From: a candidate division FCPU426 bacterium
Lineage (GTDB): Bacteria; Oederibacteriota; Muellerivitia; Muellerivitales; Muellerivitaceae
Direction: 5' to 3'
Assembly: GCA_963719085.1 (NCBI GenBank)
Contig: CAVRAL010000001.1
Coordinates: forward strand, 32,001 to 96,000
Length of the DNA: 64,000 nucleotides
Shown: positions 7,010 through 47,285 of the stretch, one piece after another
How positions within the stretch are numbered: position 1 is the first letter of the stretch
Layout of the letters: every line of letters begins with the position of its first letter
Made by a program: the position numbers and the translations under genes
The notes under the pieces: model-generated
What the model was told of the DNA's origin: nothing
Seen by the model: only the letters and a program-made list of their open reading frames with translations
Databases searched by the model: none

Positions 7010-7042
7010 GTGGGCGGCATTTTTGCCGCCCATTGTTTTATT
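7010..7042 (+). terminator. Intrinsic terminator after pilA
   Basis: GTGGGCGGCA-TTTT-TGCCGCCCAT stem followed by TGTTTTATT. Confidence 0.75.
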
Positions 7043-7855: not shown

Positions 7856-7867
7856 AGTGAGCGAGAA

Positions 7868-8971: not shown

Positions 8972-8973
8972 CC

Positions 8974-9534
8974 ATGATCAAAGTTAACCTTCTTCCGGTA
9001 ACCGAAAAGAAAAAAAGAAAACAGTTAATCATTATTGTGTTTGGCGTTTTTGTGGGTCTTATTTTGCTCGCGATCCTAGGTTGGATCTATGTGGGGCGTT
9101 TACAGGTTGAAAAAGATTTGGCGGATCAAATTAAACGGGTGGATCAGGAATCCCAGGGCTACAGCGACAAGATCGCGGAAATCAAGGACTTGGAAGCGAA
9201 AGAAACCAGCTTGGATGGTTTCCGAAAAACCCTTACCGGCATTTACGCCGTTCAAAAAAATGTCTTATTCGCTTTCGACCAAATCGCGTCGAATTTGCCG
9301 GGTGATATTTGGATCACCAAGATCACCCAGGGTCAAAAGCCGGATGAGAATAAATTCATTATTGACGGATATTCTTTCAGCAATTTATCGCTGCAAGCTT
9401 ACTTGAACGTTCTTCAAAAGCCGGGTAGCGGGTTTTCGGAGACGGTGTTGGATATCAAGAGCATCTCCGCGAGCGTTGGGAATAATAAACAAATTCAACA
9501 ATTTGAGATTACGACTCGGGCGGTCCCCCAATGA
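8974..9534 (+). CDS. pilN: Type IV pilus assembly protein PilN
   Basis: Starts MIKVNLLP (PilN INLLP motif), TM helix, coiled coil, LPGDIWI. Confidence 0.9.
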   Translation: MIKVNLLPVTEKKKRKQLIIIVFGVFVGLILLAILGWIYVGRLQVEKDLADQIKRVDQESQGYSDKIAEIKDLEAKETSLDGFRKTLTGIYAVQKNVLFAFDQIASNLPGDIWITKITQGQKPDENKFIIDGYSFSNLSLQAYLNVLQKPGSGFSETVLDIKSISASVGNNKQIQQFEITTRAVPQ

Positions 9535-10085
9535 AACTCTCCCCCCTTTATCAAGCTTTGATCATCGGCTTTTTACTTTTCGCCGGAGTTGTCGTTTTAT
9601 ATTACGAGTTTCTTTTGAAACCGGTGAATGTCCGGATTGGCCAATTGAGCGATCAGCTGGACCAAAAAAAGAAAGACTTGGATGAAGCCAAGAAAACCAT
9701 GGCGAAGTATGTCGAGTTTAAAAAACGATCGGATTCGGTCCAAAGGGAATTGGAGTGGATTCAAAATCGAATTCCAAAGCTGATTGATAAAAGCCAACTG
9801 CTGGACAGCCTCAATTTGGTCCAGAGTCGGTCGGGTATTGTCTTGACGAATTTTCAAATGTCGGCGCAAACGAACGCGCGAGACACCTATACCGAGATTC
9901 CGGTCAACTTGAAATTCACGACGAGTTATGACGGCCTCTTGAATTTTTTATATCAAACTTCAGTCTCGTCGCTTTTGATGACGGTGAATGGAATTGTAGT
10001 GACGCCGCTGGCGAATCCAGACCCCAGGTATCCCGATTTAACCTTGACGGCTCAAGTGGTCTTGAATGGAGTTCAAGCGAAATGA
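9531..10085 (+). CDS. pilO: Type IV pilus assembly protein PilO
   Basis: TM helix plus coiled coil, YTEIPVNL...SYDGLLNFL; position after pilN. Confidence 0.88.
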   Translation: MKLSPLYQALIIGFLLFAGVVVLYYEFLLKPVNVRIGQLSDQLDQKKKDLDEAKKTMAKYVEFKKRSDSVQRELEWIQNRIPKLIDKSQLLDSLNLVQSRSGIVLTNFQMSAQTNARDTYTEIPVNLKFTTSYDGLLNFLYQTSVSSLLMTVNGIVVTPLANPDPRYPDLTLTAQVVLNGVQAK

Positions 10086-10483
10086 AATTAAAAGCCCTCG
10101 TTTTTTTGGTTTTTTTAGCCTGTGTGACGGCTGCCCGCGCTCAGCAGCAGGATGTTCCGGAGCCCGTCTTTACCAGTTTTCCTATTCAACCACCCTACAC
10201 CCTCACTTATCATGGTCGGGATCCTTTCAAGCCGCTTGATAATATTGACCGTTCACCGGAGCTTTCGATCGCGGAATTGGACTATCGGGGTGTTATTCAA
10301 ATCGGAGATTCTGTATTGGCCTTGTTTACGTGGCGCGGAAACCCTCAGGTTCGTTACACGTTGAAATATAGAAAGCTATACGGGGGCAACGACAAGGCTT
10401 TGGATGGTGTGGTGGGCGAGGTTACTCAAGACGATGTTGTTTTGATCCAGGGTGATCAAAAAATAGTTTTTTCTAGAAAGTAG
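10082..10483 (+). CDS. pilP: PilP-like type IV pilus assembly protein
   Basis: Signal peptide, GRDPFKP motif, position between pilO and pilQ. Confidence 0.7.
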   Translation: MKLKALVFLVFLACVTAARAQQQDVPEPVFTSFPIQPPYTLTYHGRDPFKPLDNIDRSPELSIAELDYRGVIQIGDSVLALFTWRGNPQVRYTLKYRKLYGGNDKALDGVVGEVTQDDVVLIQGDQKIVFSRK

Positions 10484-10494
10484 AGGATTGAGCA

Positions 10495-17567: not shown

Positions 17568-18398
17568 ATGAGTTTGGAAAACGGTTTCGAAACCTCCTCC
17601 GAAGAAATTCAAAGAATAAGCGCTTTTCCCGCGGTCGTTAAGTCCTGGTTTTGCCGGTATTACGACCATCTCCTCCTGCTGGTGTTCTTGAACGTTCTTT
17701 GGGCCTTTGCGTGTTTGGGCCCCACCTTCGTTTTATTTCATTTTGGGTTTTTATTCAAAGCGGGGCAGTGGAACGCCGGAGGACTCGCGGGGATTGGATT
17801 TTGGGACGCCAATGTTTCCATCCTAACGGCCCGCGTTGTTTTTCTGGTTTTGAATGAAGGTGATTTTTCTTGGGGAGTTTTTCGAGAAGGATTAGGGGCT
17901 GCCTGGTTAAAGGCGCTGGGGCTTTTTTTAATTTGGGCCGGTGTGATCGGTTGGTTGGGTTATAATTTTTATTTTTACACCCATTGGAGCCCTTTGGGAG
18001 AACCCTGGAAATGGCTCTTGAGTGGGTTGATTCTTTGGCTTTGTGTCTTTTGGTTGTCCTGCTTTTTCTATCTTTGGCCGATCCTTTTCTTTCAGAACCC
18101 CCCCTTTTTTAGGATATTTTATAAGTCGGCTCTTTTGGTTTTTGAGAATCAGTTCTTTTTGCTTTTTTGTTTAACCTTGTTTTTAGCTCTCTTTTTTTTG
18201 TTTTCCCTGATTCCGGTCGGATGGCTGATTTTAGGCTTTACTTTTTTCTTTTCAATTCAATGCATGGTGCTTGAAAAGCATTTTTTAAGGTATAAAATAA
18301 TATATAAGAACAAGGACTATTCGTCTTTTCTGACCTTTTTAATGGTAGAGAATAAAAGAGATTGGAAGTACTTCTTGAGGCCTTGGGAGAACAAATGA
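17568..18398 (+). CDS. Integral membrane protein (DUF624/YesL-like)
   Basis: About 6 TM helices, NVLW motif, KSALL pattern. Confidence 0.55.
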   Translation: MSLENGFETSSEEIQRISAFPAVVKSWFCRYYDHLLLLVFLNVLWAFACLGPTFVLFHFGFLFKAGQWNAGGLAGIGFWDANVSILTARVVFLVLNEGDFSWGVFREGLGAAWLKALGLFLIWAGVIGWLGYNFYFYTHWSPLGEPWKWLLSGLILWLCVFWLSCFFYLWPILFFQNPPFFRIFYKSALLVFENQFFLLFCLTLFLALFFLFSLIPVGWLILGFTFFFSIQCMVLEKHFLRYKIIYKNKDYSSFLTFLMVENKRDWKYFLRPWENK

Positions 18399-19287: not shown

Positions 19288-20088
19288 TTGCGCGCCTCCG
19301 CTTCTGTTTCGCCTTGGCTTCCCTGGCTAAAACCTTTTCTTCCGTCCATGGTCCTTTTGGGCGGAAACGCGGCTGAGCTTTATCACAGTTCGCTTTTGGG
19401 CCGTCCCATTCCCCCCTTGCTCATCAAAGACACTATTTTTGGAGTGGAAAAAGCCGGCAAAAAATCAGCCGCGCTTCATGAGCATTTAATTAAATTGGGA
19501 TTTCAAAAGAAAAACGAAAAAACAGAAGTTCCCGAGGCCTCGGTCCCTGTTTACCGCCGAGGGGATTTGGGGACCATCCGATTTGTTTTTCCCCAGAAAA
19601 AATCGGGACAGCCCGCCGCCTCCGCCGGATTGGCCGCGGCGCCTGAAAAAGGTTTAGAGATTCTTTTGGAAAATCCCCATTCGGTCGAGGTTAAATACCT
19701 GGACCAAAGTTACGATGTTTATATTCCCCAGATCGGGCGGTTTGTTTTAGCGAATGGTTTAAAGGTGAAAATTTTAAAAAAATCGGATCCGCGGGATATT
19801 TACCGGGCCGCCATGCATTTTATCCATATATTGGACTTGCTGGTGGAAAACGAGGACTTTGAGGAGGAGGCCCTGAATGATTTTTTGGAGATAAGGCCGC
19901 CGGCGTTGCTCAGGGAATTCCGGGATAATTTAAAAGAAAACGGGCCGGGCTCCATCTTGTGGGAATCGGCGCAGAAGCTTTACCTTAATCTTTATCCGAA
20001 CGTAAAAGCGGTTAAACTAACGTCGTGGCACTGGAAGTTTCAAAAAAAAATATCCAAAACTATTTTGGACTCTAAAACAACGGATTAA
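19288..20088 (+). CDS. Hypothetical protein, possibly a degenerate nucleotidyltransferase fold (GSU2403-like)
   Basis: 266-aa ORF coupled to its neighbours; N-terminal MVLLGGNAAELY resembles the hhhGG.A NTase motif. Confidence 0.45.
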   Translation: MRASASVSPWLPWLKPFLPSMVLLGGNAAELYHSSLLGRPIPPLLIKDTIFGVEKAGKKSAALHEHLIKLGFQKKNEKTEVPEASVPVYRRGDLGTIRFVFPQKKSGQPAASAGLAAAPEKGLEILLENPHSVEVKYLDQSYDVYIPQIGRFVLANGLKVKILKKSDPRDIYRAAMHFIHILDLLVENEDFEEEALNDFLEIRPPALLREFRDNLKENGPGSILWESAQKLYLNLYPNVKAVKLTSWHWKFQKKISKTILDSKTTD

Positions 20089-20863: not shown

Positions 20864-21757
20864 TTAGCCTATCCAATCACCCAGGGGAAAAGCCGGCAAA
20901 CTCTCCATCGGCAACATCCTTATCTTTTGATTCGGATCATTAAATCGCGCGGCCATCTCCAAATAACTGAGATTTAATTTCGGGTGTTTTAGGCTGGGGA
21001 AAATCTCGGTGAGGGGAAAGAGCACGAATGCTTTTTGGGCGATGTCCGGGTGCGGGATCGAAAATTTTGAGTTTGTCACCAAGGACTCGTTCCAGAGGAT
21101 GAGGTCCACATCTAAAGTTCGAGGGCCATTGGGGTCTCCTTTTCGGACTCGCCCCCCCTTTTTTTCCAGTCTCGTCAGCCATTTTTTGATTTTGGCGGGC
21201 GAATCATCCGTTTCGACCGCCGCGACCATATTCCAAAACGCCGGTTGCTTCTTCAAATTGACGGGAGAAGTTTCGTAAACATGGGAAACTTTTACCAAAC
21301 CGTATTTTTTATCAATCTCGTTCAAAGCATAAGCCAAATGCGGGGCGGGGTGAATATTGGAGCCTAGGCTGAAAACTACCCAACTGTCCTGAGGAGGCCG
21401 GGCTCCGCGTTGGATGTTGACGCCGACGGTTTGAGAGCCGCGGATCGCGCCGGGTTTATGAACCGAAAGGGATAAATCGCGCAAATGAAATTGTGTGAGT
21501 AAAAGCGCGGCCAAGCGCTCCGCCAGGGTCTCCACCAGCTGAAAACGGCTATTTTCAACATATTGAATCGTGGCTTTGGCTATTTTTTTGTAATCGATGG
21601 TGTCCTTGATTTTGTCCTGACGCGACGCTTTCCGGATATTGCAAGAAAATTTCAGGTCAATCAACACGTCCTGTTTTCGCCGGCGTTCCCAGTCAAAGAT
21701 GCCGATGATGCATTTAATTTTCAGGCCGGTGAGGGTGATATAATCCTTCGAAGCCAA
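20864..21757 (-). CDS. folBK: Bifunctional dihydroneopterin aldolase / HPPK (FolB-FolK fusion)
   Basis: N-terminal IGIFDWER...IDY...LVETLAE...KPGA; C-terminal SLGSNI, YETSPV, PRTLDVDL, IPHP; TTG start at 21757 with GGAG SD. Confidence 0.92.
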   Translation of the reverse strand: MASKDYITLTGLKIKCIIGIFDWERRRKQDVLIDLKFSCNIRKASRQDKIKDTIDYKKIAKATIQYVENSRFQLVETLAERLAALLLTQFHLRDLSLSVHKPGAIRGSQTVGVNIQRGARPPQDSWVVFSLGSNIHPAPHLAYALNEIDKKYGLVKVSHVYETSPVNLKKQPAFWNMVAAVETDDSPAKIKKWLTRLEKKGGRVRKGDPNGPRTLDVDLILWNESLVTNSKFSIPHPDIAQKAFVLFPLTEIFPSLKHPKLNLSYLEMAARFNDPNQKIRMLPMESLPAFPLGDWIG

Positions 21758-21841
21758 GTTGGTTCTCCGCGAGTTGAGTTGGTACAGCTGGGAAATCAAA
21801 AACCTCGAGACCGCCCCATTTCAACAGAAACCCGAGTTCAA

Positions 21842-24211
21842 TTGAAGGATGTTTTTAAAGGAGGGAAGGGTTTTAAGCGTTGGGGGTCCTCGCGATCAAG
21901 GACCTTCATCAACGGCCACCTAGCGGCTTGTTTTTTTCTTATTTTCCTCAATATCGTTATGTTTGCGGACTTGTTTTGGACGGGCGGATCCCAAGTGATT
22001 TCCAGCCCCTTGGGCGACATCGCCCAACATTTTTTAGCCTGGCGTCAATTTTACGCGGATCAATTAAGGGCGGGAATCATTCCGCTTTGGACTCCCGCAT
22101 ATTTGTGCGGGGTTCCCTTTATGGGCGGTTTTGAATCCGCTGTTTTTTATCCTTTTAATTTGTTGTTCCTGGTTTTTTCCCTTCCTACCGCCGTTAATCT
22201 TGAGGTCTTTTTACATGCGCTGATGGCCGGGCTTTTCAGCTACGGGTGGGCGGCTTCACGTGGTTGGAGGCCTTTGGCTTGTTTATTGACGGCTTGCGGC
22301 GTCACTTTCGGCGGCCCCTTTTTTTTACAAGTCTATGCCGGGCATCTTTCCAACTTGTGCGCCATGGCTTGGATTCCACTGATTTTTTGGGCCTTGGAAG
22401 AATTGGCAAAGAAAATCTCAATCCGCTGGTGCGGCTGGGCGACTTTCGCTGTTTGCCTGCAAGGCCTGGCGGGGCATCCTCAATATTTTTATTACACGGC
22501 CTTGATGATTTTTGTTTATGGATTGATTTTGAGTTTAAAGACCTCCGAGTTATTTAAAAAAATGTGGATTCTGGGATTGGTTTATGGCGCCGGATTGTGT
22601 CTTTCGGCGCCCCAATGGCTGACGGGACTGGAGGCGGTCGGGGAATCCGCGCGAGGGAATTTAAACGATTTCAAAACATCCGGATTATTTTCACTTCCGC
22701 CGGAAAATTTCATCACCTTATTTATGCCGGATTTTTTGGGGCCCGTGGGAAGCAATCAATATTGGGGACGCTGGTATTTGTGGGATGTCTCGCTTTTCAC
22801 GGGGTCGATTCTGTTATTTTTGTGCTTTTACGCATTGACCAAAAATCGAATGAAAAACTTAGGCGAGATTTTTATGATCGGAATCGCTTTTTTAATGGCG
22901 TGGGGACAATCGACCCCGCTTTTTCGAGTTTTGTTCGATGCGCTTCCGGGTTTCAAAAGCTTTCGGGGCACCTGCAAGTTCGATATTTTTATCACGCTTT
23001 TCATCGCGCTTTTGGCCGGTTCGGGGCTGGACCGCCTTCTGACGAAAAAACGCTTGGAAGCCGGGGTGTGGAAGGGATTGCTCGCGGCCGCGTTTCTATC
23101 GGCGGGACTGGGTTGGGTCATTCAAGGGTCCGCCCAAAAGGGATTGGCGGGCGCGTGGGGAACTTGGCTCCTGTCGGTGCATTGGTTGAAAGCGGAATTG
23201 GCGCCGCTGGATCAACAAACCTTAAGTGATTTCGCGCAGAAAGCCGGCCTTCAATCGGCTCAAAGCCTTTTCCTTTTTTCGATAATGATTTTGATCATGG
23301 CGGGGTGCGCCTGGTGGAGCCGGTTCAATCCCAAAGGGGTGTTGGCGCTTGGGTTGATCGCGATTTTGGAACTGTTTTTATTCGCCCATTCCCATCGTCC
23401 CACTTTTGAGTGGGGATCCTTAAGCGCGAAATTCGAGACGATTAAAAATTTTTATCAATCCCATCCGGGGGATTACCGGGTCATGGGGACCGGAAGCGAC
23501 TCGGTTTTGGAAGGGGGGGTGGATATTTGGGAGGGACAGCCGCTCATTCTTTCCCGTTATGGGCGCTTTGTGGCTAAAAGCCAGGGATTTCCCGAGGCGG
23601 AGTTGTTTCGCACCTCGCCGATTTTCAGACGCTTTGACCCGGTTTATTCCATCGTTCGGCTTCGGTATCTCTTGAGCGATGAGAGCGGGAACCGGGTTCA
23701 GGCGCTTGAGCTTCCTTTTAAGCCTTTCCCCCAGGTTAAAATTTATCACCAAGCCGCCATCGCCTCCTCGGCGGAGGAGGCACTTTCTTTTTTATTAACC
23801 CCCGGATTTGACATTAAAAATCGCATCATCTTGGAGCAAAAGCCTTCCTTTGTCCCTCGGCCAGCCATGGCGCCGGAACAGGCGGTCGGGTCAGATCTTT
23901 CAGTTAATCAAATGGGGATTCAAGCCCATCTCTCCTCACCGGGTTTTTTGCTCATTACGGATAATTATGGACTGGGCTGGAAAGTGCGATCGGCCGGGGG
24001 AGACTTTTGGCCGGGAGTGCGGGTGGAACCAGCGGACGGATTTTTAAGGGCGATTCCGCTGGAGGCCGGGGTTTACGATCTGAGACTGGTTTACGCCCCG
24101 GATTCTTTTCGGGTGGGCCTGTGGATTTCACTGCTTTCGTGGATGTTTTATATTGCTATACTGACCTGCGTTTTTCGCCGCCCCCTATCGCCCGCACTTA
24201 AAAGGAAGTGA
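21842..24211 (+). CDS. YfhO-family (GT-C-like) polytopic membrane protein
   Basis: IPLWTP..CGVPF, FYPFN, GHPQ, many TM helices, C-terminal NYGLGWK...GFLRAIPLEAG...Y.P; start uncertain (upstream extension overlaps folBK). Confidence 0.8.
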   Translation: MKDVFKGGKGFKRWGSSRSRTFINGHLAACFFLIFLNIVMFADLFWTGGSQVISSPLGDIAQHFLAWRQFYADQLRAGIIPLWTPAYLCGVPFMGGFESAVFYPFNLLFLVFSLPTAVNLEVFLHALMAGLFSYGWAASRGWRPLACLLTACGVTFGGPFFLQVYAGHLSNLCAMAWIPLIFWALEELAKKISIRWCGWATFAVCLQGLAGHPQYFYYTALMIFVYGLILSLKTSELFKKMWILGLVYGAGLCLSAPQWLTGLEAVGESARGNLNDFKTSGLFSLPPENFITLFMPDFLGPVGSNQYWGRWYLWDVSLFTGSILLFLCFYALTKNRMKNLGEIFMIGIAFLMAWGQSTPLFRVLFDALPGFKSFRGTCKFDIFITLFIALLAGSGLDRLLTKKRLEAGVWKGLLAAAFLSAGLGWVIQGSAQKGLAGAWGTWLLSVHWLKAELAPLDQQTLSDFAQKAGLQSAQSLFLFSIMILIMAGCAWWSRFNPKGVLALGLIAILELFLFAHSHRPTFEWGSLSAKFETIKNFYQSHPGDYRVMGTGSDSVLEGGVDIWEGQPLILSRYGRFVAKSQGFPEAELFRTSPIFRRFDPVYSIVRLRYLLSDESGNRVQALELPFKPFPQVKIYHQAAIASSAEEALSFLLTPGFDIKNRIILEQKPSFVPRPAMAPEQAVGSDLSVNQMGIQAHLSSPGFLLITDNYGLGWKVRSAGGDFWPGVRVEPADGFLRAIPLEAGVYDLRLVYAPDSFRVGLWISLLSWMFYIAILTCVFRRPLSPALKRK

Positions 24212-30365: not shown

Positions 30366-31126
30366 ATAATTTGGTCACCCTCTTAAGCAATTTCCGCTTG
30401 AACGACCTATTCGATATCCTGATCGTTACTTTTCTGATTTACCAATTGCTTCTTTTAATCCGGGAAGCCCGGGCCATCCGGATTGTGGTCGGGTTCGTGA
30501 TTTTGTTTTTATCCGCGGTCCTGGCCGGGCAGTTTCATTTATTGACCATTGACTGGATTCTTTCCAGTTTGGGGCCCTTTTTATTGGTCGCTTTTGTGAT
30601 CATCTTCCAATCGGACCTTCGGCGCATCATCTCCCAAATCGGCCGGGGCGGTTTTTGGGGAGGTGTCTTCCGGGGCGAGCCCCCGGCCTTCAAAGAAATC
30701 AGCCAAGCGGCCCGGGAACTCGTGAAGAGCCGGCGGGGCGCGCTTATTGTGTTGGAGCGCGACGATAGTTTACAGGGGGTCATTGAGACGGGAACCCCGA
30801 TTGGCGCGGAGGTGAGCGCGGAACTTTTGATCACTTTTTTCGTGCCCCATTCGCCCCTGCATGACGGAGCGGTGGTGATTCGCGACGGAAAAATCGCCGC
30901 TGCCGGCTGTATTTTGCCCTTGAGTCAAAATCCCAATTTAAGTAAAAGCTACGGCACCCGACACCGGGCGGCGCTGGGTGTGACCGAGGAAACGGACGCG
31001 TTGGTCATTGTGCTTTCGGAAGAAAACCACACCATTTCTTTCGCCATGGCGGGAAAAATGACGCCTGAAATCGACGCGGCGACTTTGGAAGAGATGCTTA
31101 CCCTTTACGGGACTAAGGTTGATTGA
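30362..31126 (+). CDS. cdaA: Diadenylate cyclase CdaA
   Basis: Three TM helices, PLHDGAV and GTRHRAA catalytic motifs. Confidence 0.95.
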   Translation: MNNLVTLLSNFRLNDLFDILIVTFLIYQLLLLIREARAIRIVVGFVILFLSAVLAGQFHLLTIDWILSSLGPFLLVAFVIIFQSDLRRIISQIGRGGFWGGVFRGEPPAFKEISQAARELVKSRRGALIVLERDDSLQGVIETGTPIGAEVSAELLITFFVPHSPLHDGAVVIRDGKIAAAGCILPLSQNPNLSKSYGTRHRAALGVTEETDALVIVLSEENHTISFAMAGKMTPEIDAATLEEMLTLYGTKVD

Positions 31127-31127
31127 T

Positions 31128-31259
31128 ATGAAACGATGGCTGCGCCGCTTTTTGTAAAAGTTTGCGCAAAGCGGTATGGCGCATCGTTCGAGTAATGGCC
31201 GCAAGCCTGCGGGTACACCCTACGGCTTCCGGCAAAGGACTGATATGAAACGATGGCTG
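31128..31259 (+). repeat. Start-duplicating two-hairpin element, copy 1 (before cdaR)
   Basis: TGATATGAAACGATGGCTG repeated at 31124-31142 and 31241-31259 around two hairpins; homologous to 35970-36103. Confidence 0.8.
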
Positions 31260-31664
31260 TTTGATAATTTAGGGTTAAAAATTTCCGCTTTTCTCATCGC
31301 CCTTTGTCTTTGGGCCTATGTGGGGTCGCGCCAGGTTCTGGATACCCGGGTCATCGTGCACCTGCAACTGACCGATATTCCGGTGGGCATGACGGTTGAC
31401 TCAAACGTGAAGACCGCCATTCCGGTCATTTTGACGGGCCGAAAAGAAAGCATTCTGGACCTGGACCCGGACGATCTTTCGGCCATCGTGAGTTTGCGCG
31501 GTTACGTCCCGGGCAAGCAAGATCTGCCGGTTCATCCCGTGATCAAACCCTTGCCAATCGGGGTCACGGCCAACACGCCTGATGTTACCATCCATTTGAT
31601 TCCGGTCGTGGTGAAACCGCCGGCCCCGCCCACCCGGGATCGCCATCGAAAGGGAGCTAAATAA
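31245..31664 (+). CDS. cdaR: CdaR/YbbR-like protein (single YbbR domain)
   Basis: MKRWLFDNLGLKISAFLIALCLWAYV, typical CdaR N-terminus; follows cdaA. Confidence 0.8.
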   Translation: MKRWLFDNLGLKISAFLIALCLWAYVGSRQVLDTRVIVHLQLTDIPVGMTVDSNVKTAIPVILTGRKESILDLDPDDLSAIVSLRGYVPGKQDLPVHPVIKPLPIGVTANTPDVTIHLIPVVVKPPAPPTRDRHRKGAK

Positions 31665-31667
31665 CTT

Positions 31668-32405
31668 ATGGCCAATCTTTGCGTGAATATCGACCATGTC
31701 GCCACCTTGCGGCAAGCCCGCTTAGAAGAGGATCCGGATCCGCTCCAGGCGGCCCGGTTAGTGGAAAAAGCCGGGGCCCACGGCATTACGGTTCATTTAA
31801 GGGAAGACCGCCGTCATATTCAGGATCGGGATGTGCTGGGTCTTCGTAAAATCGTTCGAACCAAGCTGAATCTGGAAATGGCCGCCACGGAAGAAATGAT
31901 CCGGTTCGCGCTTCAAGTAAAGCCGGATCAGGTCACCTTGGTCCCTGAAAAAAGAAAGGAACTCACTACCGAAGGCGGGCTCGCCCTGGAGGGGGCTTTT
32001 CATCGCTATGAGAAGGCGATGGATCGTCTCCAGTCAAAAGGAATCCCCGTTTCATTGTTTATTGATCCTGCACCCCGGTCGGTCCAAGTTTCGGCCCGGT
32101 TAGGCGCGACTTATATTGAGATCCACACCGGCGCTTACAGCCGAGCTTTTCGATTAAAAAAATCCGCCCTGGTGAAAAAAGAATGGTTGAAAGTGGTTTA
32201 CGCCGCCAAGTTGGGGGCCGGCTTAGGGCTTCGGGTTCACGCGGGACATGGTTTGACCTATCAAAATACCGCCGCGATCGCGCGGATTCCGGAAATCGAG
32301 GATTTGAACACAGGCCACAATATCGTGGCCCGGGCGACCCTGGTGGGGATGGAAAAAGCCGTCCGGGAGATGCTTCAAATTATGCGTTCGGCCCAAAAGC
32401 GGTAG
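31668..32405 (+). CDS. pdxJ: Pyridoxine 5'-phosphate synthase
   Basis: VNIDHVATLRQAR, HLREDRRHI, LTTEGG, AGHGL. Confidence 0.96.
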   Translation: MANLCVNIDHVATLRQARLEEDPDPLQAARLVEKAGAHGITVHLREDRRHIQDRDVLGLRKIVRTKLNLEMAATEEMIRFALQVKPDQVTLVPEKRKELTTEGGLALEGAFHRYEKAMDRLQSKGIPVSLFIDPAPRSVQVSARLGATYIEIHTGAYSRAFRLKKSALVKKEWLKVVYAAKLGAGLGLRVHAGHGLTYQNTAAIARIPEIEDLNTGHNIVARATLVGMEKAVREMLQIMRSAQKR

Positions 32406-32446
32406 AATTAAGCAACGGGGTTTATCTCGATTTGAGGGAGGCGGGT

Positions 32447-32764
32447 ATGGGAAAACTTATTTTGTTCGCGGTGGTCTTGGCGGTCGGCTCGATTGGATAC
32501 CTCTTGTGGAACACCAAGCCCGATACGCCGCCCCAACAAACTTTGACGGGCTATACCCAAGGGCTGCAATCTTCCGAACAAAAGGCCGAAGCGGCGGCCT
32601 CCGGCGCCAATCTTGAGAATGTGAGGATGGCGGTGGAAAAGTATAAAAATGAAAAGGGCGCCTCTCCCGCGTCCTTGCAGGATCTGGTGCCCAATTACCT
32701 GGATCACGTGCCGGGCGGGGTCCAATATGACCCGGCCACCGGTACGGTCTCCACGGCGCCTTGA
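32447..32764 (+). CDS. Small membrane-anchored pilin/GspG-like protein
   Basis: GGAGG SD; N-terminal TM helix; NLENVRMAVEKY..EKG..PASLQDLVPNYL...YDPATG resembles a pseudopilin globular domain. Confidence 0.55.
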   Translation: MGKLILFAVVLAVGSIGYLLWNTKPDTPPQQTLTGYTQGLQSSEQKAEAAASGANLENVRMAVEKYKNEKGASPASLQDLVPNYLDHVPGGVQYDPATGTVSTAP

Positions 32765-32774
32765 TCCGCCTCCG

Positions 32775-33290
32775 TTGAAAAAATCAAAACCCCTGATCGA
32801 CGAGGCCCAGGCCTATCGTTATGCCCTCTGGCTTTTAAATCGAAGGCCCCACAGCAGCGGTGAATTGCTTGAAAAATTTCATCGTCGGACCTTGCCGGTG
32901 GAAATCGCCCATAAGGTTTTGGCCAAGCTTCAGCAAAAAAAATTCGTGGATGACGCGGCCTTCGCGGAAGGATTCGCCCATTCCCGCGCTAAGCGCAGCT
33001 GGGGACCCGGCAAAATAAGGGTGGCCCTCCAGAAAAAGAAAATTCCACGGGATTTGGCCGGGAAATCGGTGGCCTCGGCTTTCCCCGAGCAAGCGGAAGC
33101 CCAAAAGGCCTTGGAATTGTTAGAAAGACAAAAACAAAGATTTTTGCGCAAAAAAGAGAAGAAAAAAGGCCAAAGGCCCGCTTGGGCCTTCGATTATCTG
33201 GTGCGAAAGGGCTATTCTTTTCAATCGGCCCGTCTCGCCGTGAAGGAGGTTTTCAGCTATAATTCCGGCCTTCCTGAGGAAGAAACTTAA
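32775..33290 (+). CDS. recX: Regulatory protein RecX
   Basis: ALWLLNRRPHS..EL, VDDAAFA, GPGKIRVALQKK, YLVRKGY; precedes alaS; start uncertain. Confidence 0.88.
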   Translation: MKKSKPLIDEAQAYRYALWLLNRRPHSSGELLEKFHRRTLPVEIAHKVLAKLQQKKFVDDAAFAEGFAHSRAKRSWGPGKIRVALQKKKIPRDLAGKSVASAFPEQAEAQKALELLERQKQRFLRKKEKKKGQRPAWAFDYLVRKGYSFQSARLAVKEVFSYNSGLPEEET

Positions 33291-33302
33291 CTGAGGTTTT
33301 TT

Positions 33303-35969
33303 ATGAGCGTGCCCACAAGCGGAAGTGAAATTCGAAAAGCCTACCTGGATTTTTTTAAGTCCAAAAACCACAAAATTGTCCCTTCGTCTTCCTTAGTGCC
33401 GGAAAATGACCCCACCCTGCTACTTTCGAACGCCGGAATGAATCAGTTCAAACCTTATTTTTTAGGGACGATCCCTTTTCCCAACAGCGTGCCTTACGCC
33501 GCTTCCTGCCAAAAATGTTTCCGCACGGGCGATCTGGAGCGCGTGGGTTATACGGCCCGGCACCATACCTTTTTCGAGATGTTGGGTAATTTTTCTTTCG
33601 GTGGTTATTTTAAAAAAGAAGCCATTGAGTGGGCCTGGGAATTCGTGACCGCTATTTTAAAATTGGATCCCTCGCTTTTGTGGGTGACGGTTTTTGAGAA
33701 TGACGATGAGGCCATTGAGCTTTGGAAAAAGACGGCCAATCTTCCCCCGGAGCGCATCCGGCGCATGGGCGCCGATTCCAACTTTTGGACCATGGGGCCA
33801 ACGGGCCCCTGCGGCCCTTGCTCGGAAATTTACGTCGACTTGAAGCCGGAGCTGGGCCCGACGAAGAATTTTGAGGCGGACGCCGAGGCCGGCCGCTACC
33901 TTGAAATTTGGAACCTGGTTTTTACCCAGTTTGATAAACAAGAAGACGGAAGCTTGAAGCCCCTTCCCAAACCCAATATCGACACCGGGATGGGATTGGA
34001 ACGGGTGGCCAGCGTCATGCAAAAGGTCCCTTCCAACTTTGAGACGGACCTTTTAACCCCTTTGGTAGCGGCAATCGCCAATAGGTTGGGTGTTTCCAAC
34101 GCGGTTGATTCGGCCGCTTATACCTCCCTGAAAGTTATCAGCGATCACTTGCGGGCCATGACCTTCTTGATCGCGGATGGCGTTTTACCCTCCAATGAAG
34201 GCCGCGGGTATGTTCTGAGGCGTATTCTTCGCCGGGCGGTTCGCCATGGGAAAATGTTGGGGGCGTCCAAGCCGTTTTTAAACGCCCTGGTCCCCGAAGT
34301 CGGAAAAGTAATGGGCGCGATTTACCCCGAAGTAACGGATCGCCAGGCGCATATTATGAATGTGGTCAAGGCCGAGGAAGAGCGCTTCCTTGAGACACTG
34401 GACGCGGGACTGGAAAGATTAACTCAAAAAATGGAAGCTTTGGGAAAAGCCGGAACCCACACCCTGCCGGGTGAGGACGCTTTTATGCTTTATGACACCT
34501 ATGGTTTTCCTTTGGACTCCACGAAAGAGTTTTTAAAGGAAAATGGCTGGAAAGTCGATGAGGCGGGTTTTCAAAAGGCCATGGAAGGCCAAAAGGAAAA
34601 GGCTCGATCCGCCTGGAAGGGAAGCAGTGACGGAGTGTTGCCTCCCCTCTACAAAGAAATGGAGTCGAAGCTCGGCGCGACCGTGTTCAAAGGCTATGAA
34701 AAGATAAAAGATTTGGGTCAAGTTTCGCTTTTGGTCCGGGTAAAGGATAAAAAGCACGAAGTCGTGGAAACCTTGGCGGAAGGCGATTACGGGTTTGTGA
34801 TTCTCAATCAAACACCCTTCTACGCCGAAAAAGGCGGACAGGTAGGGGATAAGGGCGCCCTGCAAGGCTTTAACTCCTCCGAGGTTTCCTGGGCGGACGT
34901 ATTAGACACCCAAATGGTTTCAGACACGCTGATTGGACATTGGGTTTTCATGAAGCGGGGAAAATTGGCTGTCGGCCAAAAGGTGGAAGCCACGGTGGAA
35001 GAAAGCGAGCGCCGCGCCACTATGCGCAACCACACCGCCACCCATCTTTTACACGCGGCTTTGCGGAGGGTTTTGGGCGCCCATGTGGGCCAGGCCGGCA
35101 GTTATGTGGGTCCGGACCGTTTGCGATTCGATTTCACCCATTTCGAGGGCTTGAAGCCTGAGGAAGTCCGCATAATTGAGAAGATGGTCAACCAGCAGGT
35201 CCTCGACAACATCGAACTCACCAAACAAGAAATGACTTTTGATGAGGCCAAGAAAAAGGGCGCATTGGCTTTCTTCAGCGAAAAATACGGTGAGAAGGTG
35301 CGGGTGGTGGATGTTCCCGGCTTTTCCATGGAACTTTGCGGCGGGACCCATGTCAATCGCACGGGCGACATCGGACTTTTTAAAATACTCAGCGAGTCTT
35401 CCGTGGCCTCGGGAGTGAGGCGCATTGAGGCGGTTACCGGCGAAGGCTCGATCGAAAGGGTCTATCAAGAAGAGGGAATTCTCCAACAAGTGGGCCAACT
35501 TTTAAAAAGCTCGGAAGTGGATTTAAGCGGCCGGGTGGAAGCCCTGCTTTTAGAAATGAAAACCAAGGATAAGGAATTGGCCTCGTTGAAATCAAAACTC
35601 GCCGGAAGCTTGGTTGATGAAATTCTGGAAAAGAAAAAAGAAGTAAAGGGGATTTCGGTGGTCGTGGCCCGAACCGACGAGCTGGATCCCGAAGGCATGC
35701 GTCAATTGATCGATGCAGTGAAAGAAAAAATCGGCAGCGGCGTGATCGTTTTGGCCAGCGGCAAGCCATCCATCGCCTTTATCGCCGGTGTGACCAAAGA
35801 CCTGACAGGAAAAGTAAAGGCCGGGGATTTGGTGAAGGAAGTGGCCAAGGTGGCGGGCGGCGGCGGCGGTGGACGGCCGGATTTGGCCCAAGCCGGCGGT
35901 AAAGACGCCTCCAAAGTCGATGAAGCCTTGCGCCAAGTCATCCCGTTTATTGAAAAGACCCTTTCTTAA
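33303..35969 (+). CDS. alaS: Alanine--tRNA ligase
   Basis: NAGMNQFK, HHTFFEMLGNFSFG, IDTGMGLER, NHTATHLLH, ELCGGTH, GGGGGRPDLAQAGG. Confidence 0.99.
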   Translation: MSVPTSGSEIRKAYLDFFKSKNHKIVPSSSLVPENDPTLLLSNAGMNQFKPYFLGTIPFPNSVPYAASCQKCFRTGDLERVGYTARHHTFFEMLGNFSFGGYFKKEAIEWAWEFVTAILKLDPSLLWVTVFENDDEAIELWKKTANLPPERIRRMGADSNFWTMGPTGPCGPCSEIYVDLKPELGPTKNFEADAEAGRYLEIWNLVFTQFDKQEDGSLKPLPKPNIDTGMGLERVASVMQKVPSNFETDLLTPLVAAIANRLGVSNAVDSAAYTSLKVISDHLRAMTFLIADGVLPSNEGRGYVLRRILRRAVRHGKMLGASKPFLNALVPEVGKVMGAIYPEVTDRQAHIMNVVKAEEERFLETLDAGLERLTQKMEALGKAGTHTLPGEDAFMLYDTYGFPLDSTKEFLKENGWKVDEAGFQKAMEGQKEKARSAWKGSSDGVLPPLYKEMESKLGATVFKGYEKIKDLGQVSLLVRVKDKKHEVVETLAEGDYGFVILNQTPFYAEKGGQVGDKGALQGFNSSEVSWADVLDTQMVSDTLIGHWVFMKRGKLAVGQKVEATVEESERRATMRNHTATHLLHAALRRVLGAHVGQAGSYVGPDRLRFDFTHFEGLKPEEVRIIEKMVNQQVLDNIELTKQEMTFDEAKKKGALAFFSEKYGEKVRVVDVPGFSMELCGGTHVNRTGDIGLFKILSESSVASGVRRIEAVTGEGSIERVYQEEGILQQVGQLLKSSEVDLSGRVEALLLEMKTKDKELASLKSKLAGSLVDEILEKKKEVKGISVVVARTDELDPEGMRQLIDAVKEKIGSGVIVLASGKPSIAFIAGVTKDLTGKVKAGDLVKEVAKVAGGGGGGRPDLAQAGGKDASKVDEALRQVIPFIEKTLS

Positions 35970-36103
35970 ATGAAACGTTGGCTGCGCCGCTCTTTTTTAA
36001 GGACATCAATGAAGGCGGCATGGCGCCAACTTGACCGTAATAGCCGGATATTGAAACTCGGGGTTCAATATCCGGCCAAGGATACGCCATGAAGCGTTGG
36101 CTG
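35970..36103 (+). repeat. Start-duplicating two-hairpin element, copy 2 (before yqgF)
   Basis: ATGAA(A/G)CGTTGGCTG at 35970-35984 and 36089-36103 around two hairpins; homologous to 31128-31259. Confidence 0.8.
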
Positions 36104-36523
36104 GCTCTCGACTTGGGGCGGGTGCGCATTGGAGTGGCCCTGTCCGATCCATTGGGATTGACCGCTCAGCCTCTGATGGTTTTAAAATCGGAAGGAACCC
36201 AAAAAGATATCATTGCCATCGGGCAGTTGGTGGATGAGAAACAAGTCACTCAAATTATCGTGGGGCTTCCTTTTAATATGGACGGAAGCGAAAGCGCCAC
36301 CACCCAAAAGGTGCGGGACTTCACGGCCAAGCTGGCCGATCGTTTAAACGTGCCGGTTTTTTATGTGGATGAGCGTTTGACCAGCAAACAAGCCGAACGG
36401 GCCATGATTGAGGGCGGGGCCCGCCGGGAAAAGCGCAAAGAGAAAATCGATCAAGTCGCGGCGGCGCTCATTTTGCAATCCGCTTTAGAAGGGGCGCCCT
36501 TGAGGGCGGTGGAAAAATCATGA
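36089..36523 (+). CDS. yqgF: YqgF/RuvX pre-16S rRNA nuclease
   Basis: LALDLGRVRIGVALSD, VGLP, DERLTS, IDQVAAALILQ. Confidence 0.95.
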   Translation: MKRWLALDLGRVRIGVALSDPLGLTAQPLMVLKSEGTQKDIIAIGQLVDEKQVTQIIVGLPFNMDGSESATTQKVRDFTAKLADRLNVPVFYVDERLTSKQAERAMIEGGARREKRKEKIDQVAAALILQSALEGAPLRAVEKS

Positions 36524-43246: not shown

Positions 43247-43400
43247 GACGGATTAGGTAAATCGATAAATCATGATAAAAAGCTTCCGGCCTTTTAATCT
43301 TTTGCGTTTTTAAGGCCCGAACCCGCCCGCTTTTTTTGAAGAAGGGTACAATAAACGGGTCTTATTGGAACCGATGCTTTCCCCATTTTTGGAGGCGTTC

Positions 43401-46400
43401 ATGAAGCCGGCTTTTCACCGCTTGAAGGTCCTGGCTTTGTTGGTTTTATTTTGGAATCATCCGCTTTTCGCCCAAAACGCCGTCACTCTCACGAATAGTT
43501 CGGGCGATGAGTCCACGGGGTCTTTTGAGGCCGGCGTCACCTATTTGAACGCCAACGGCGGCGGGAACCTTGTCACCCAACTTTCCAATTCTAATCCGAT
43601 TACTTTATCGAATCCCCTGCCGGTTGTTTCCCAAAATGTGACTTTACTTGGCGCCGCGGGATTTTCCTTGCCCGCGGTAAATATCATCGCCCAAACCGGA
43701 AATCCTGTTTCGCTTGTCTTTCAAAATAACTTCAGTTTAGGGGCGAATACCGGACTTTTGCTTCATGGTGCTGGGTCCGACTTGGACGCGGCCGTTTCGG
43801 CCGGATCCTTCAATATGAGTTCGGGTTCGGGAATCGGTTTTTTCGGGGGAGGGGGAAACAGTATCACAATAGCCGGCGGTAGTTCACAAACGGGCGGCAC
43901 GGGGGGGGACGGTTTGATGACCGTGGCCAACTTGATCAATATGGATTCCGCTGGTGGGCAACTTTTTGGCGGCGCGGGCGGTTCCATGTCGAGCGGTGGT
44001 GGTGGCGTCAATGACACGGGTGGACTGGGCGGGAACGCCTTGGCACAGTCGTCCACTTGGACACTTTCGGACTCTAATTATTCCATTTTAGGCGGCAACG
44101 GCGGAAGCGCCGATGGTACGAGCAATATCCTGGGAGGGCAGGGCGGCGGCGTGAATGTTTCCGTTAATAATTGGGCGGTCACCAATAGTTCGGGCTTTAC
44201 CATGTCGGGCGGAAATGGCGGGGCCGCCGTGACGGGAACTTTTGGCGGGACGGCCTTGACGGGCGGTGCGGGCGGGGGGGCCACGGTGGCGGCAGGGGCC
44301 TTGACGGTCTCGACTTCCCAATGGTTCTTAAATGGGGGAAATGGCGGCATGGGCACCGATACAGGCGGTTTGGGCGGCGCGGTAAGTGTTCATTGGAATT
44401 CCTTGAATGAAACCCAGGGCGCGGATGTGAATGTGGTGGCCGGGAATGGCGGCGATGGTTCCCAGTTAGGCGGTCAAGGGGGCGGCGCGGCGGTGGCTGG
44501 TGTGTCGATCGTTGAATCGGGCTCCTCCTCCAACTTGAATGTGTCCGGCGGCACGGGCGGCGGATTGTCGTCATTGGGCGGCGGAGCCAACACGGCGGGG
44601 AACGGCGGCAGCGCGGGCATGACCATGGCCTTTATCCAATTGACCGCCGGCACCGGTATGGATTTTTTCGGGGGCAGCGGGGGCAACGGCTTTTCTCTTT
44701 CACAAGGAACGGGGGGCAATGGGGGCAACGCCTCGGTTTCCATTGGAGCGATCGATATTGAAAGCCAATCCGCCTTGAATTTATCCGGAGGCGCGGGCGG
44801 TAACGGCGGGACCAGCGGCAACGGGGGAACCGCCCTCGTACTAGCCAACTCGGTCACTTTGGACACGGGCGGTAATTTGACCCTGGAAGGCGGGAATGCC
44901 GGGGCGTCCTCGGTCTCCGTTGGGGCGGCCGGCGGCGTGGGAGTTGGGTTCCAAACCGCCTTTATCGGGACGAATGCCTCCTTGAATTTGTTGAGCGGGA
45001 CGACGGGCAGCGTGGTGGCCTCGATCGATGATTTAACGGGCGCAGGGTCGATTGAGGAAACGGGGTCCAATAGCGTTCTGGAGTTGGGCACGGGTTCTTT
45101 TAGCGGAACGATTTCAGGGACGGGAAGCCTGATTCAAAATGGCGCTTCCGGAGCCCTCACCCTGTCCGGCAACAACGGTTATACCGGGGGCACGGTTGTG
45201 GAAGGCACCTTGGTTGTCGACACCGGGGGAAGCTTAGGATCGGGCGGGGTCTCGGTTGAGAACTCCAAGACGCTGGAATACGTCCATTCGGCCTCGGCTG
45301 GAAACGCTTCGGTGACCAGCAGCGGGACCGTGGATTTTGAAAACACTTCGACCGCGGGAGCGGCGACCTTTACCTTGGTCCCGGGCGGTTACGCCAACTT
45401 TTCCAATGCCGCCCAAGGCGGGACGGCCAGTTTCAACCTGGCAGGCGGTTCGGCCTTCGATGTTTCCACCAGCACGGCGGGGGTGGTGACCGTTGGATCC
45501 ATCGCTAGTTCGGGTGGATCGGTTTCATTGGGGGGGGCGGCGGGTACGGGATTGGCGGTCGGGATCAACGATCTTTCAACGACGATTTCCGGGGTTATTT
45601 CCGATGTTGGCTTAGGCGGCGCGCTGATTAAGCAAGGCACTGGAATTTTGGCTTTAAACCAATTGAACACTTACCAAGGCGGAACCCTCTTACAACAAGG
45701 ACGGTTGGAAGTGGCTGACGCGACCTCGCTGGGCTCGGGATCGGTTTCGGTGATGGGGGGTACACTTTCATCGATGGGAAGCGCGGTTTCTTTAAACGTA
45801 GGCGGGAATTACGTTCAAGGCCCCGGCGGGACGATTCAGCTCGGACTCTATGGCACCAATGCCACGGGGGTCGATTGGTTGAATGTCAATGGAAGCGCCA
45901 AGTTAGGCGGCACGCTGGATTTGGCCGCCGGGAGCGGTTTTACGCCGATGTCCATTGGGAACGCGGTGGTATTGATCGACACGGATAACGGCCTTACCGG
46001 CAACTTTCAAACGATCGAGGAATCCTTTCCCGGTATGCGGCTTTTGCCGATCTATCAGCCGGGCCTTTTCGAAGTCGAGTCCATTGATCTTTCCTTCGCG
46101 GCCGCCGGACAAACCCTGAATGAAAAGGCGATCGGCGCGGATCTGGACGTGGTTTATCTTTCGCCGGGAGTTCAAAACTTAATGGTGGCCTTGGGCACCC
46201 AATCCGACGCCGTGCTTAAAAACGCTTATGACCAGCTTTCCCCGGAAGGGTACAGCGTATTGTACCAATCCGCTTTTGAGGGGGTCCAACTCCAAGCTTC
46301 CGAGGTCGATGACCGCTTGGCTGAATTAAGAGACGCCTCTCAAACGCCCGCGCTTCCTACGCCGCGCCGCCGAGGCGCGTCGAGCGGCGGCGAAACGGCG

Positions 46401-47285
46401 CTTTTCGCGGGCAATTTATCGGTGGCTGATGAAATGGCCATGCTGGTCCGTCCGCAATCCGATGGTCCCAGTTCCTGGGGCGGATTTTTTTCAGGGAATG
46501 GCGGGGTCTTTACCGTTGGCGATACGAGCAACGCGGAGGGATTCAAAGATACTTCTTACGGTCTTTCGGCGGCGGGCGCCGATTACCGGATTTCCAACCA
46601 GTTGGCCTTGGGCGTTTTGGCCGGTTACGCCGAGTCCGATGTGAGTTTGAACGGGGGTGGATCCGTCACTGAAACCGGAGGTCAGTTGGGCGTTTATGGA
46701 ACCTGGTATCCCAACCAGTTCTATTTTAACGCCTTGTTGGAGGGCGGGATTAACCACTACAGCTCCCAGCGGCAAAGTTATCAAGGCGACGCCGGGGGAA
46801 AGACCCAAGGCTTTTTATTCAGCTCCCGTTTAGGCGTGGGCTACGATTGGAAGGGAAGCGGCTGGGTCGTTGGTCCCTTGGCCGCCATCCAATGGACCCA
46901 ATTATCCATCGACGGTTTTACCGAACAAGGCCCCTTGGCCTCCCTAGCGATCGCGTCCCAGACACAAAGCTCTTGGATGAGCCAGATGGGGGCCCATGCC
47001 CAATGGTGTTTGAACTTGGGCGGGATTCAAATTCAGCCGGGCGCTAAAATTTCCTGGGAGCATGAGTTCACTTATCAAGGCGGGATCGTTCAAGCGGGAT
47101 TTGGCCAGGGCGACAGCTTTACGGTGGAGGGACCGGCGGTGGGTCAGGACGGCTTTTTAGCCCGAGGGAGTTTGGACACGTCCTTTTCGAAACAATTGAC
47201 GGTTTCCCTGGGGTATCAAGGGGAGTTAGGCCGCGCCAATCTTACTTCCGCCCAGTTCGATGCTGGAATGAGATTCGGTTTTTAA
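43401..47285 (+). CDS. Autotransporter with Gly-rich passenger and PATR repeats
   Basis: Signal peptide after GGAGG SD; GGxGG repeats; LTLSGNNGYTGGT and GTGILALNQLNTYQGGT PATR repeats; C-terminal beta-barrel ending in F. Confidence 0.9.
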   Translation: MKPAFHRLKVLALLVLFWNHPLFAQNAVTLTNSSGDESTGSFEAGVTYLNANGGGNLVTQLSNSNPITLSNPLPVVSQNVTLLGAAGFSLPAVNIIAQTGNPVSLVFQNNFSLGANTGLLLHGAGSDLDAAVSAGSFNMSSGSGIGFFGGGGNSITIAGGSSQTGGTGGDGLMTVANLINMDSAGGQLFGGAGGSMSSGGGGVNDTGGLGGNALAQSSTWTLSDSNYSILGGNGGSADGTSNILGGQGGGVNVSVNNWAVTNSSGFTMSGGNGGAAVTGTFGGTALTGGAGGGATVAAGALTVSTSQWFLNGGNGGMGTDTGGLGGAVSVHWNSLNETQGADVNVVAGNGGDGSQLGGQGGGAAVAGVSIVESGSSSNLNVSGGTGGGLSSLGGGANTAGNGGSAGMTMAFIQLTAGTGMDFFGGSGGNGFSLSQGTGGNGGNASVSIGAIDIESQSALNLSGGAGGNGGTSGNGGTALVLANSVTLDTGGNLTLEGGNAGASSVSVGAAGGVGVGFQTAFIGTNASLNLLSGTTGSVVASIDDLTGAGSIEETGSNSVLELGTGSFSGTISGTGSLIQNGASGALTLSGNNGYTGGTVVEGTLVVDTGGSLGSGGVSVENSKTLEYVHSASAGNASVTSSGTVDFENTSTAGAATFTLVPGGYANFSNAAQGGTASFNLAGGSAFDVSTSTAGVVTVGSIASSGGSVSLGGAAGTGLAVGINDLSTTISGVISDVGLGGALIKQGTGILALNQLNTYQGGTLLQQGRLEVADATSLGSGSVSVMGGTLSSMGSAVSLNVGGNYVQGPGGTIQLGLYGTNATGVDWLNVNGSAKLGGTLDLAAGSGFTPMSIGNAVVLIDTDNGLTGNFQTIEESFPGMRLLPIYQPGLFEVESIDLSFAAAGQTLNEKAIGADLDVVYLSPGVQNLMVALGTQSDAVLKNAYDQLSPEGYSVLYQSAFEGVQLQASEVDDRLAELRDASQTPALPTPRRRGASSGGETALFAGNLSVADEMAMLVRPQSDGPSSWGGFFSGNGGVFTVGDTSNAEGFKDTSYGLSAAGADYRISNQLALGVLAGYAESDVSLNGGGSVTETGGQLGVYGTWYPNQFYFNALLEGGINHYSSQRQSYQGDAGGKTQGFLFSSRLGVGYDWKGSGWVVGPLAAIQWTQLSIDGFTEQGPLASLAIASQTQSSWMSQMGAHAQWCLNLGGIQIQPGAKISWEHEFTYQGGIVQAGFGQGDSFTVEGPAVGQDGFLARGSLDTSFSKQLTVSLGYQGELGRANLTSAQFDAGMRFGF

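Follow-up and report, generated by a model that had tools for sequence, protein, structure and literature searches.

Two copies of a putative small insertion element between duplicated translation starts in a candidate division FCPU426 bacterium

Bacterial miniature inverted-repeat transposable elements, known as MITEs, are bounded by terminal inverted repeats, leave short target duplications of fixed length and occur in many copies, with a related autonomous IS in the genome. IS200/IS605 elements use targets of 4-5 nucleotides (nt) and leave no duplication behind, and some integrative and conjugative elements (ICEs) integrate at a gene's 5' end, as SXT does in prfC. Target choice in the IS200/IS605 family is reported to rest on base pairing between the target and a short internal guide beside a hairpin (PMC3201880, PMC5934647). 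Further reports describe REPs as palindromes of 20-40 base pairs (bp), one end of which bears an unpaired tag, GTAG or CGTC (PMC3733652), usually present in more than 100 copies per genome (PMC2817692), and the IS1202 group as 1.5-kb elements with terminal inverted repeats of 24-26 bp and a DDE transposase, whose unusually long target duplications (16-28 bp) come without target specificity (PMC10132070). Here, we describe two homologous inserts in a stretch of 64,000 nt (positions 32,001 to 96,000 of contig CAVRAL010000001.1, assembly GCA_963719085.1; hereafter the window) from a candidate division FCPU426 bacterium, one lying between cdaA and a short ybbR-like gene and the other between alaS and ruvX. 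The inserts are real and unusual and could be assigned to no described family; we tentatively favour the reading that they represent a small insertion element (~100 nt), non-autonomous, sequence-directed and of putative mobility, which is present here in two copies. Each copy is bounded on one side by the ancestral start of the downstream gene (ATGAARCGWTGGCTG) and on the other by a duplicated version of it that abuts the upstream stop codon.

The inserts measure 98 nt at the cdaA|ybbR-like junction (copy 1, 31143-31240) and 104 nt at the alaS|ruvX junction (copy 2, 35985-36088), lie 4.8 kb apart and, like the parts of each copy located below, are read on the + strand of the window. At both junctions the upstream stop (the cdaA TGA, 31124-31126, and the alaS TAA, 35967-35969) is followed, after 1 and 0 nt respectively, by ATGAAACG(A/T)TGGCTGCGCCGC, which places an upstream ATG at 31128 and at 35970, and the first 15 nt of this sequence recur where the native gene begins, 117 or 119 nt further on. 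In copy 1 the direct repeat is exact over 19 nt (TGATATGAAACGATGGCTG, 19/19 between 31124-31142 and 31241-31259) and takes in the cdaA stop codon: its left member consists of TGA, then T, then ATGAAACGATGGCTG, and in its right member the YbbR-like gene (31245-31664, native ATG at 31245) has its native start. The repeat of copy 2 is shorter, with ATGAAACGTTGGCTG directly after the alaS stop (35970-35984) and ATGAAGCGTTGGCTG at the native start of ruvX (36089-36103; gene at 36089-36523) agreeing at 14 of 15 positions. Both repeats contain locus-specific bases, the two halves of copy 1 having CGA and an extra TGAT and the two halves of copy 2 having CGT, as duplication of the local target sequence predicts. 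The 21-mer ATGAAACGWTGGCTGCGCCGC has exactly two sites in the 64 kb, a number that does not rise when 3 mismatches are tolerated, and it matched in none of 100 shuffles. The window holds four ATGAA(A/G)-Arg-TGG sites, every one at these two loci, which means that 2/2 native sites in the window are occupied; the native starts of the two genes have 13/15 nt in common.

The homology of the inserts reaches beyond the repeats. With the repeats and the adjoining CGCCGC stripped, the remaining 92 and 98 nt were globally aligned and scored 44.5, against 18.2 +/- 4.8 for shuffled sequence, a value reached by 1 of 2000 shuffles and by none of 1961 random segments of the window; the interiors are strongly diverged yet significantly homologous. 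The limits of the two elements proper rest on the alignments and this test, copy 1 spanning CGCCGC to AAAGGAC. Three blocks are common to both copies, GCGG(T/C)ATGGCGC, GTAAT(G/A)GCCG and CCGGC(A/C)AAGGA, the last of which carries the AAGGA Shine-Dalgarno sequence (31235-31239, 5 nt before the native ATG, and 36078-36082, 6 nt before it). Six-frame translation of the inserts gave no common coding potential beyond MKRWLRR. An earlier examination by a model that saw only the letters and their open reading frames (ORFs), the sequence-only reading, had already reported homologous non-coding stretches at these junctions (there cdaA/cdaR and alaS/yqgF), the exact 19-bp and the 14/15 repeats, the three blocks with their Shine-Dalgarno sequence and a perfect 13-bp stem in copy 2; all of these statements check out against the coordinates, and the interior score, in beating the shuffles, bears out the homology.

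Both copies are predicted to fold as hairpin A, a GTAAT linker, hairpin B and the Shine-Dalgarno AAGGA. Fold significance for the full units is modest for copy 1 (z -1.85; 8 of 200 shuffles as good) and higher for copy 2 (z -2.71; 1 of 200). Hairpin A reaches beyond the insert: CGCCGC and the 3' two-thirds of the left repeat together make up its 5' arm, while its 3' arm consists of the GCGG.ATGGCG block and a short anti-start, the complement of the start sequence. In copy 1 (31132-31188) the left-repeat bases AACGATGGCTG, together with CGCCGCTTT, pair with AAAGCGGT, ATGG and CATCGTT, the block GCGGTATGGCGC lying at 31171-31182 and the anti-start CATCGTT at 31182-31188. In copy 2 (35977-36030) the left-repeat GTTGGC together with GCCGC pairs with GCGGC and GCCAAC, the block GCGGCATGGCGC lying at 36015-36026 and the anti-start GCCAAC at 36025-36030. 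These pairings appear in the RNA, consensus and DNA folds alike, and the anti-start occupies a matching interior position in the two copies (34 and 35). The RNAalifold consensus retains 14 pairs of hairpin A, among them one compensatory pair, A-U vs U-A, in which the A/T difference between the repeats is mirrored by a U/A change in the partner. The linker and hairpin B follow at 31192-31233 in copy 1 (hairpin B itself at 31198-31233) and at 36037-36076 in copy 2, whose perfect 13-bp stem (36043-36076) exceeds in length every other perfect hairpin stem that a scan of the window with loops of 3-12 nt detected. The earlier proposal that stem bases are kept while interiors diverge holds insofar as the conserved blocks of the inserts coincide with stem bases; in hairpin B, however, only the basal GCCG/CGGC foot is conserved, and the inner stems are wholly different yet paired in both copies. 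Diverged but structure-preserving interiors of this kind would be the pattern of a structure-constrained repeat family. Hairpins A and B also form with DNA parameters, on both strands, and the fold alone is therefore no guide to function as RNA or as DNA, although two conserved G-U pairs in hairpin A lean slightly to the sense strand.

The leftover start opens an upstream open reading frame (uORF) in each copy. That of copy 1 (31128-31157) begins 1 nt past the cdaA stop and has 9 codons (MKRWLRRFL, then a stop); that of copy 2 (35970-36092) has 40 codons, and its TGA overlaps the ruvX ATG as ATGA. Neither the length (9 vs 40 codons) nor the overlap with the next ATG, which is seen in copy 2 only, is conserved, so the two copies do not show the conserved uORF with a fixed stop-to-start relation that marks a leader peptide or uORF attenuator. 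The peptide of 40 amino acids (aa) encoded in copy 2 found no candidate of 22-70 aa in a search of 5.8 billion proteins, and its sole match among 1.84 billion representatives, a 792-aa protein (E 5.8e-4, 30% identity), is regarded as chance. A promoter and terminator scan gave nothing inside the elements except one 9-of-12 promoter-like site across the right repeat of copy 1. The conserved GGTATGGCGC block of copy 1 contains an in-frame ATG (31176-31664) which would lengthen the YbbR-like protein by 23 residues; this extension is seen in none of the listed relatives, and gene callers could still mis-annotate the start.

The history of the MKRWL start is best seen in the relatives of the two proteins. 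Among 120 listed relatives of RuvX (100-72% identity), 74 start exactly with MKRWL, 98 with [MLV]KRWL, and 116 have [KR]RWL in the first 25 residues; the 4 exceptions are shorter start calls which begin at or just before the conserved VRIGVALSD. The corresponding figures for 48 listed relatives of the YbbR-like protein (95-51% identity) are 32, 32 and 35. These proteins thus indicate that, throughout an uncultured lineage, MKRWL is the N-terminus ancestral to both gene families. It follows that the right-hand repeat is the original start and not a donation by the element, and that the target pre-dates the element. The sequence-only reading, in which the element rebuilds the start that it interrupts by donating MKRWL, does not survive this result, since MKRWL is present in relatives down to ~72% (RuvX) and ~51% (YbbR-like) identity; that two unrelated genes both start MKRWL turns from a consequence of insertion into its likely cause. 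The pre-existing common 15 nt would have acted as target or as (micro)homology, and is likely to be the reason that both sites were hit. Two near relatives of RuvX differ upstream of this motif. In P0007 (95% identity) the start is GTG and the residues upstream are unrelated (LFFGCPK-V-KRWL). P0009 (89% identity) starts MKRPLPNPKRWL (MKRPLPNP-KRWL): its MKR start lies seven codons upstream, and Pro stands in place of the native Met. The upstream residues of both differ from the in-frame translation of the window's insert, which indicates that the junction is not constant among near relatives, and P0009 might preserve a collapsed remnant of the same duplicated-start arrangement, although these signs are suggestive only. 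Separately, the N-termini of RuvX and of the YbbR-like protein each continue with a similar motif (L-D-L-G and N-L-G-L, respectively), and the retention of MKRWL by two unrelated families could reflect coincidence or a common constraint on the mRNA start.

The favoured reading would run as follows. An element would have entered two pre-existing sites with a common 15 nt through a process that recognises this sequence, candidate processes being site-specific recombination on the common core or guide-like pairing between anti-start and target, either of them supplied in trans. Entry would have left a 15-19-nt duplication of local sequence. The insertion would have been tolerated, and would be harmless, because the native start stayed intact and received a new Shine-Dalgarno sequence at 5-6 nt, while the leftover start would have become a short uORF with codons 3-7 locked in hairpin A. 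Near-perfect repeats around diverged interiors fit best with recent insertion from diverged master copies.

The inserts share features with several of the described systems without matching any of them. They resemble IS200/IS605-type elements and their miniature derivatives in having hairpins near both ends and no visible terminal inverted repeats; hairpins A and B provide, in both copies, the subterminal imperfect palindromes expected at both ends of an IS200/IS605 miniature. The internal segment beside hairpin A, complementary to the flanking target, would be a candidate guide. They differ from these elements in that the flanking repeat here is 15-19 nt long and that no Y1 transposase is found among the window ORFs scanned (59 of 64 chosen ORFs of at least 80 aa, compared with Pfam). 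Hairpin B, a 34-36-nt GC-footed palindrome after an unpaired GTAAT, recalls REPs and REPINs, as does the position between same-direction genes, where the inserts are probably transcribed, in agreement with PMC3733652. Unlike REPs, however, which are mobilised by RAYTs and often occur as inverted pairs, both copies have the tag GTAA and not GTAG or CGTC, GTAATRGCCG occurs only twice in the 64-kb window, no Y1/RAYT domain is found among the ORFs scanned, and the unit is larger, with hairpin A and direct repeats in addition. Perfect stems of at least 9 bp occur at only 4 loci in the window. Integrative elements with an att core, such as ICEs and prophages, likewise have flanking direct repeats of target-shared sequence and leave the interrupted gene functional, as would appear to be the case here, and the core is identical or nearly so at the paired junctions (19/19 and 14/15 nt); in contrast to such elements, which have a cognate recombinase and excise as a circle to restore the empty site, a 100-nt insert is too small to encode a recombinase, none is found nearby among the ORFs scanned, and here two different genes are the targets. 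The IS1202 group has the long flanking duplication but also the inverted termini that are not seen here. MITEs and other intergenic repeat units (ERIC, RUP, BOX, Correia), as generally known, are of similar size, lie between operon genes, are structured and can supply expression signals, whereas the present inserts are without visible terminal inverted repeats, have duplications of 19 and 15 nt that are neither short nor fixed, and number 2 in 64 kb. Integron attC sites, dif/Xer sites and group II intron remnants were discarded, their size and motifs, as commonly understood, being unfitting. CRISPR-like ectopic spacer insertion was set aside since the "spacers" are homologous to each other and ~100 nt long.

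Known RNA families do not account for the inserts either. Rfam (release 15) at gathering thresholds returned only 2 tRNAs from the whole window, and at E <= 10 the region 30900-36400 gave 3 chance-level matches, none above 16 bits, of which one lies in copy 1 (COG2908 RNA, 15.6 bits vs a gathering score of 58.7); the sequence-only reading, which did not recognise the element as a known RNA family, is upheld on this point. Within the window, blastn-short and nhmmer --max searches with both copies gave nothing outside the two loci, and a repeat search returned only the known pair (family D19). The covariance-model search that had been proposed along with the sequence-only reading was carried out over the window: a model built from both copies (R1; 147 positions, 14 pairs), run with filters off, scored the two copies at 164 and 156 bits and the next best hit at 12.5 bits (E 0.7), so that no further copy emerged there. 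An exact 21-mer scan was also made of 185,579 species-representative genomes, a set from which the source genome is evidently absent, and gave 3 loci, all of them unrelated protein N-termini starting MKRWLRR with no element behind. This absence from 185,579 genomes, bar the 3 unrelated loci, argues against an old and widely conserved leader.

A number of these and other results weigh against a mobile element. The copies number only two, 4.8 kb apart, and the 64-kb window holds no third; none was found elsewhere by exact 21-mer (species representatives) or in blastn comparisons of both copies with plasmids and of copy 2 with phages. The Pfam scan of 59 ORFs detected no transposase, integrase/recombinase or reverse transcriptase domain, and reading the element ends by eye (CGCCGC... 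vs ...AAGGAC or ...GGATACGCC) detected no terminal inverted repeats, in both respects as the sequence-only reading had maintained; of the 97 inverted-repeat pairs in the window, the 25 longest include none that involves the element ends. An empty site would have the upstream stop and, 0-1 nt after it, one ATGAARCGNTGGCTG only; such sites can be inferred only through the protein N-termini of relatives. The anti-start complementarity is individually weak, the 7-mer being equalled or surpassed by 58/2000 shuffles and the 6-mer by 316/2000, and the lone compensatory pair is based on two sequences. The repeats are unequal in length (19 vs 15 nt), and as the copies share ancestry their common features are not independent observations. 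We know of no described mechanism by which a 100-nt element, on entering a specific 15-nt target, would duplicate 15-19 nt. With two copies to go on, the case for mobility is circumstantial. Any account needs a duplicative event that put homologous DNA in two places and made a second version of the local start.

Such an event may have been a single one. It is conceivable, if unlikely, that no mobile family exists and that the insert arose once, at either junction, and was copied to the other over 4.8 kb by replication template switching or by short-homology recombination through the common 15-nt start, in which case the insert would automatically be flanked by common sequence. The native starts, already alike at 13/15 nt, lend themselves to this, and the proximity of the copies, the lack of any other in the window or in the genome, plasmid and phage searches described above and the absence of a mobility gene among the ORFs scanned are what it would lead one to expect. 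The diverged interiors, however, imply that the copying is old, yet the left repeats match the native starts at 19/19 and 14/15 positions, and extra selection or gene conversion must therefore be invoked; the origin of the duplicated start of the first copy and the TGAT extension of copy 1 are also left unexplained. Two other explanations were rejected. Tandem duplication of local coding sequence is contradicted by the interiors, which on inspection are unlike the downstream codons or the 3' end of the upstream gene and have no significant local match, and an assembly artefact by the differences between the copies and the coherent gene context.

Whatever their origin, the inserts might instead be maintained as a cis-regulatory leader with a decoy start, a view to which we also assign a low probability. 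The 3' arm of hairpin A would pair with either the left (decoy) start or the real one: held by the decoy, it would leave the real start and its Shine-Dalgarno sequence free, whereas ribosomes ending the upstream gene would melt hairpin A and shift the arm onto the real start, and upstream translation would thus modulate downstream initiation. When the left arm is blocked, the 3' arm is indeed predicted to pair with the native start in both copies, with duplex energies of -14.0 and -16.1 kcal/mol against -24.4 and -22.8 kcal/mol for the left partner, but this alternative pairing is automatic from the identity of the repeats and hence not independent evidence. The same base (A or T) stands in the left and right repeats with its complement in the anti-start, the loops vary while the stem bases are conserved, and the two conserved G-U pairs of hairpin A fit the sense strand; however, the same structure folds as DNA on both strands. 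A conserved switch is also hard to reconcile with uORFs of 9 and 40 codons, of which only that of copy 2 overlaps the next start, with a 5' part of the repeat (TGATATGAA) that is identical in copy 1 although it lies outside the helix, and with an exact 21-mer scan that found no copy in related species, and it does not explain how the arrangement arose. Translational bypassing seems very improbable. Ribosomes would initiate at the left ATG, in coupling with the upstream stop, leave the message within hairpin A at the fifth codon, CTG, and resume at the matching CTG in the right repeat, with ~117 nt skipped. In gene 60-type bypassing a stop directly follows the take-off codon and the coding gap is ~50 nt. 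Here, CGC CGC follows the CTG in both copies with no stop, and the gap of 117-119 nt is over twice the 50 nt of gene 60; with a native start that has a well-spaced Shine-Dalgarno sequence, bypassing is moreover unnecessary. In its favour are the matching take-off and landing sequences, the hairpin at the take-off site, the Shine-Dalgarno-like AAGGA in the gap and the T4 gene 60 insert itself, which is reported to be part of a mobile element (bioRxiv 10.1101/2022.08.31.505936).

Within the insertion-element reading, a more specific form is rather doubtful but deserves mention. The inserts could represent a new type of miniature mobile element in which ~7-11 nt of a 15-nt target, here a translation start, are complementary to an internal guide that captures the target by base pairing, the target and the element end forming hairpin A, with integration leaving the 15-19-nt duplication. 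An element of this kind would join guide-based target choice of the IS200/IS605 kind with a long target duplication, and the ribosome-binding site that it carries could let it stay silent at gene starts.

The inserts interrupt an otherwise compact gene order. The same-strand housekeeping run comprises tilS, ftsH, folE, folP, cdaA, the short YbbR-like gene, pdxJ, a recX-like gene, alaS, ruvX, mltG, ftsE and ftsX, and between 28856 and 36523 the junctions between its long ORFs range from -62 to +12 nt, genes overlapping or standing a few bases apart; the exceptions are the cdaA|ybbR-like and alaS|ruvX junctions, each of ~118 nt. The gene called cdaR in the sequence-only reading encodes a short YbbR-like protein of 139 aa, for which Pfam gave no match at E <= 0.1 and for which the name YbbR-domain protein comes only from JGI (relatives) and Atlas features. 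Gene orientation is heavily skewed, 59 of the 64 chosen ORFs (at least 80 aa; window 1-64000) lying on the + strand, and the minus-strand ORFs are few, short and probably spurious. An autotransporter of 1306 aa with a beta-domain and a passenger-associated repeat lies amid the housekeeping genes (43365-47285), and three further ORFs, one of 882 aa (21563-24211) and two of ~270 aa (17568-18398 and 19288-20088), are without a Pfam match even at E <= 0.1. The prepilin peptidase gene is apparently split into two overlapping ORFs in different frames (7023-7855): ORF 7023-7517 has the A24 N-terminal domain and ORF 7490-7855 matches only positions 44-104 of the Peptidase_A24 profile (26.1 bits vs a cutoff of 26.5). 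The split may stem from a frameshift or a sequencing error or mark a pseudogene, and the type IV pilus cluster (2313-12852) is otherwise complete.

On either reading, as mobile element or as regulatory leader, annotation pipelines should treat the upstream ATG beside the stop codon as not being the gene start. If the inserts are a maintained regulatory leader, they would constitute a decoy-start switch that couples the translation of neighbouring genes, of which we know no described example, although no search aimed at one was made. If, on the other hand, they are members of a mobile family, selfish DNA can colonise the tightest places of a compact genome, the stop-start junctions of translationally coupled genes, without causing harm there, and its target would be picked by sequence, possibly through base pairing, which would make the family of interest for programmable insertion.

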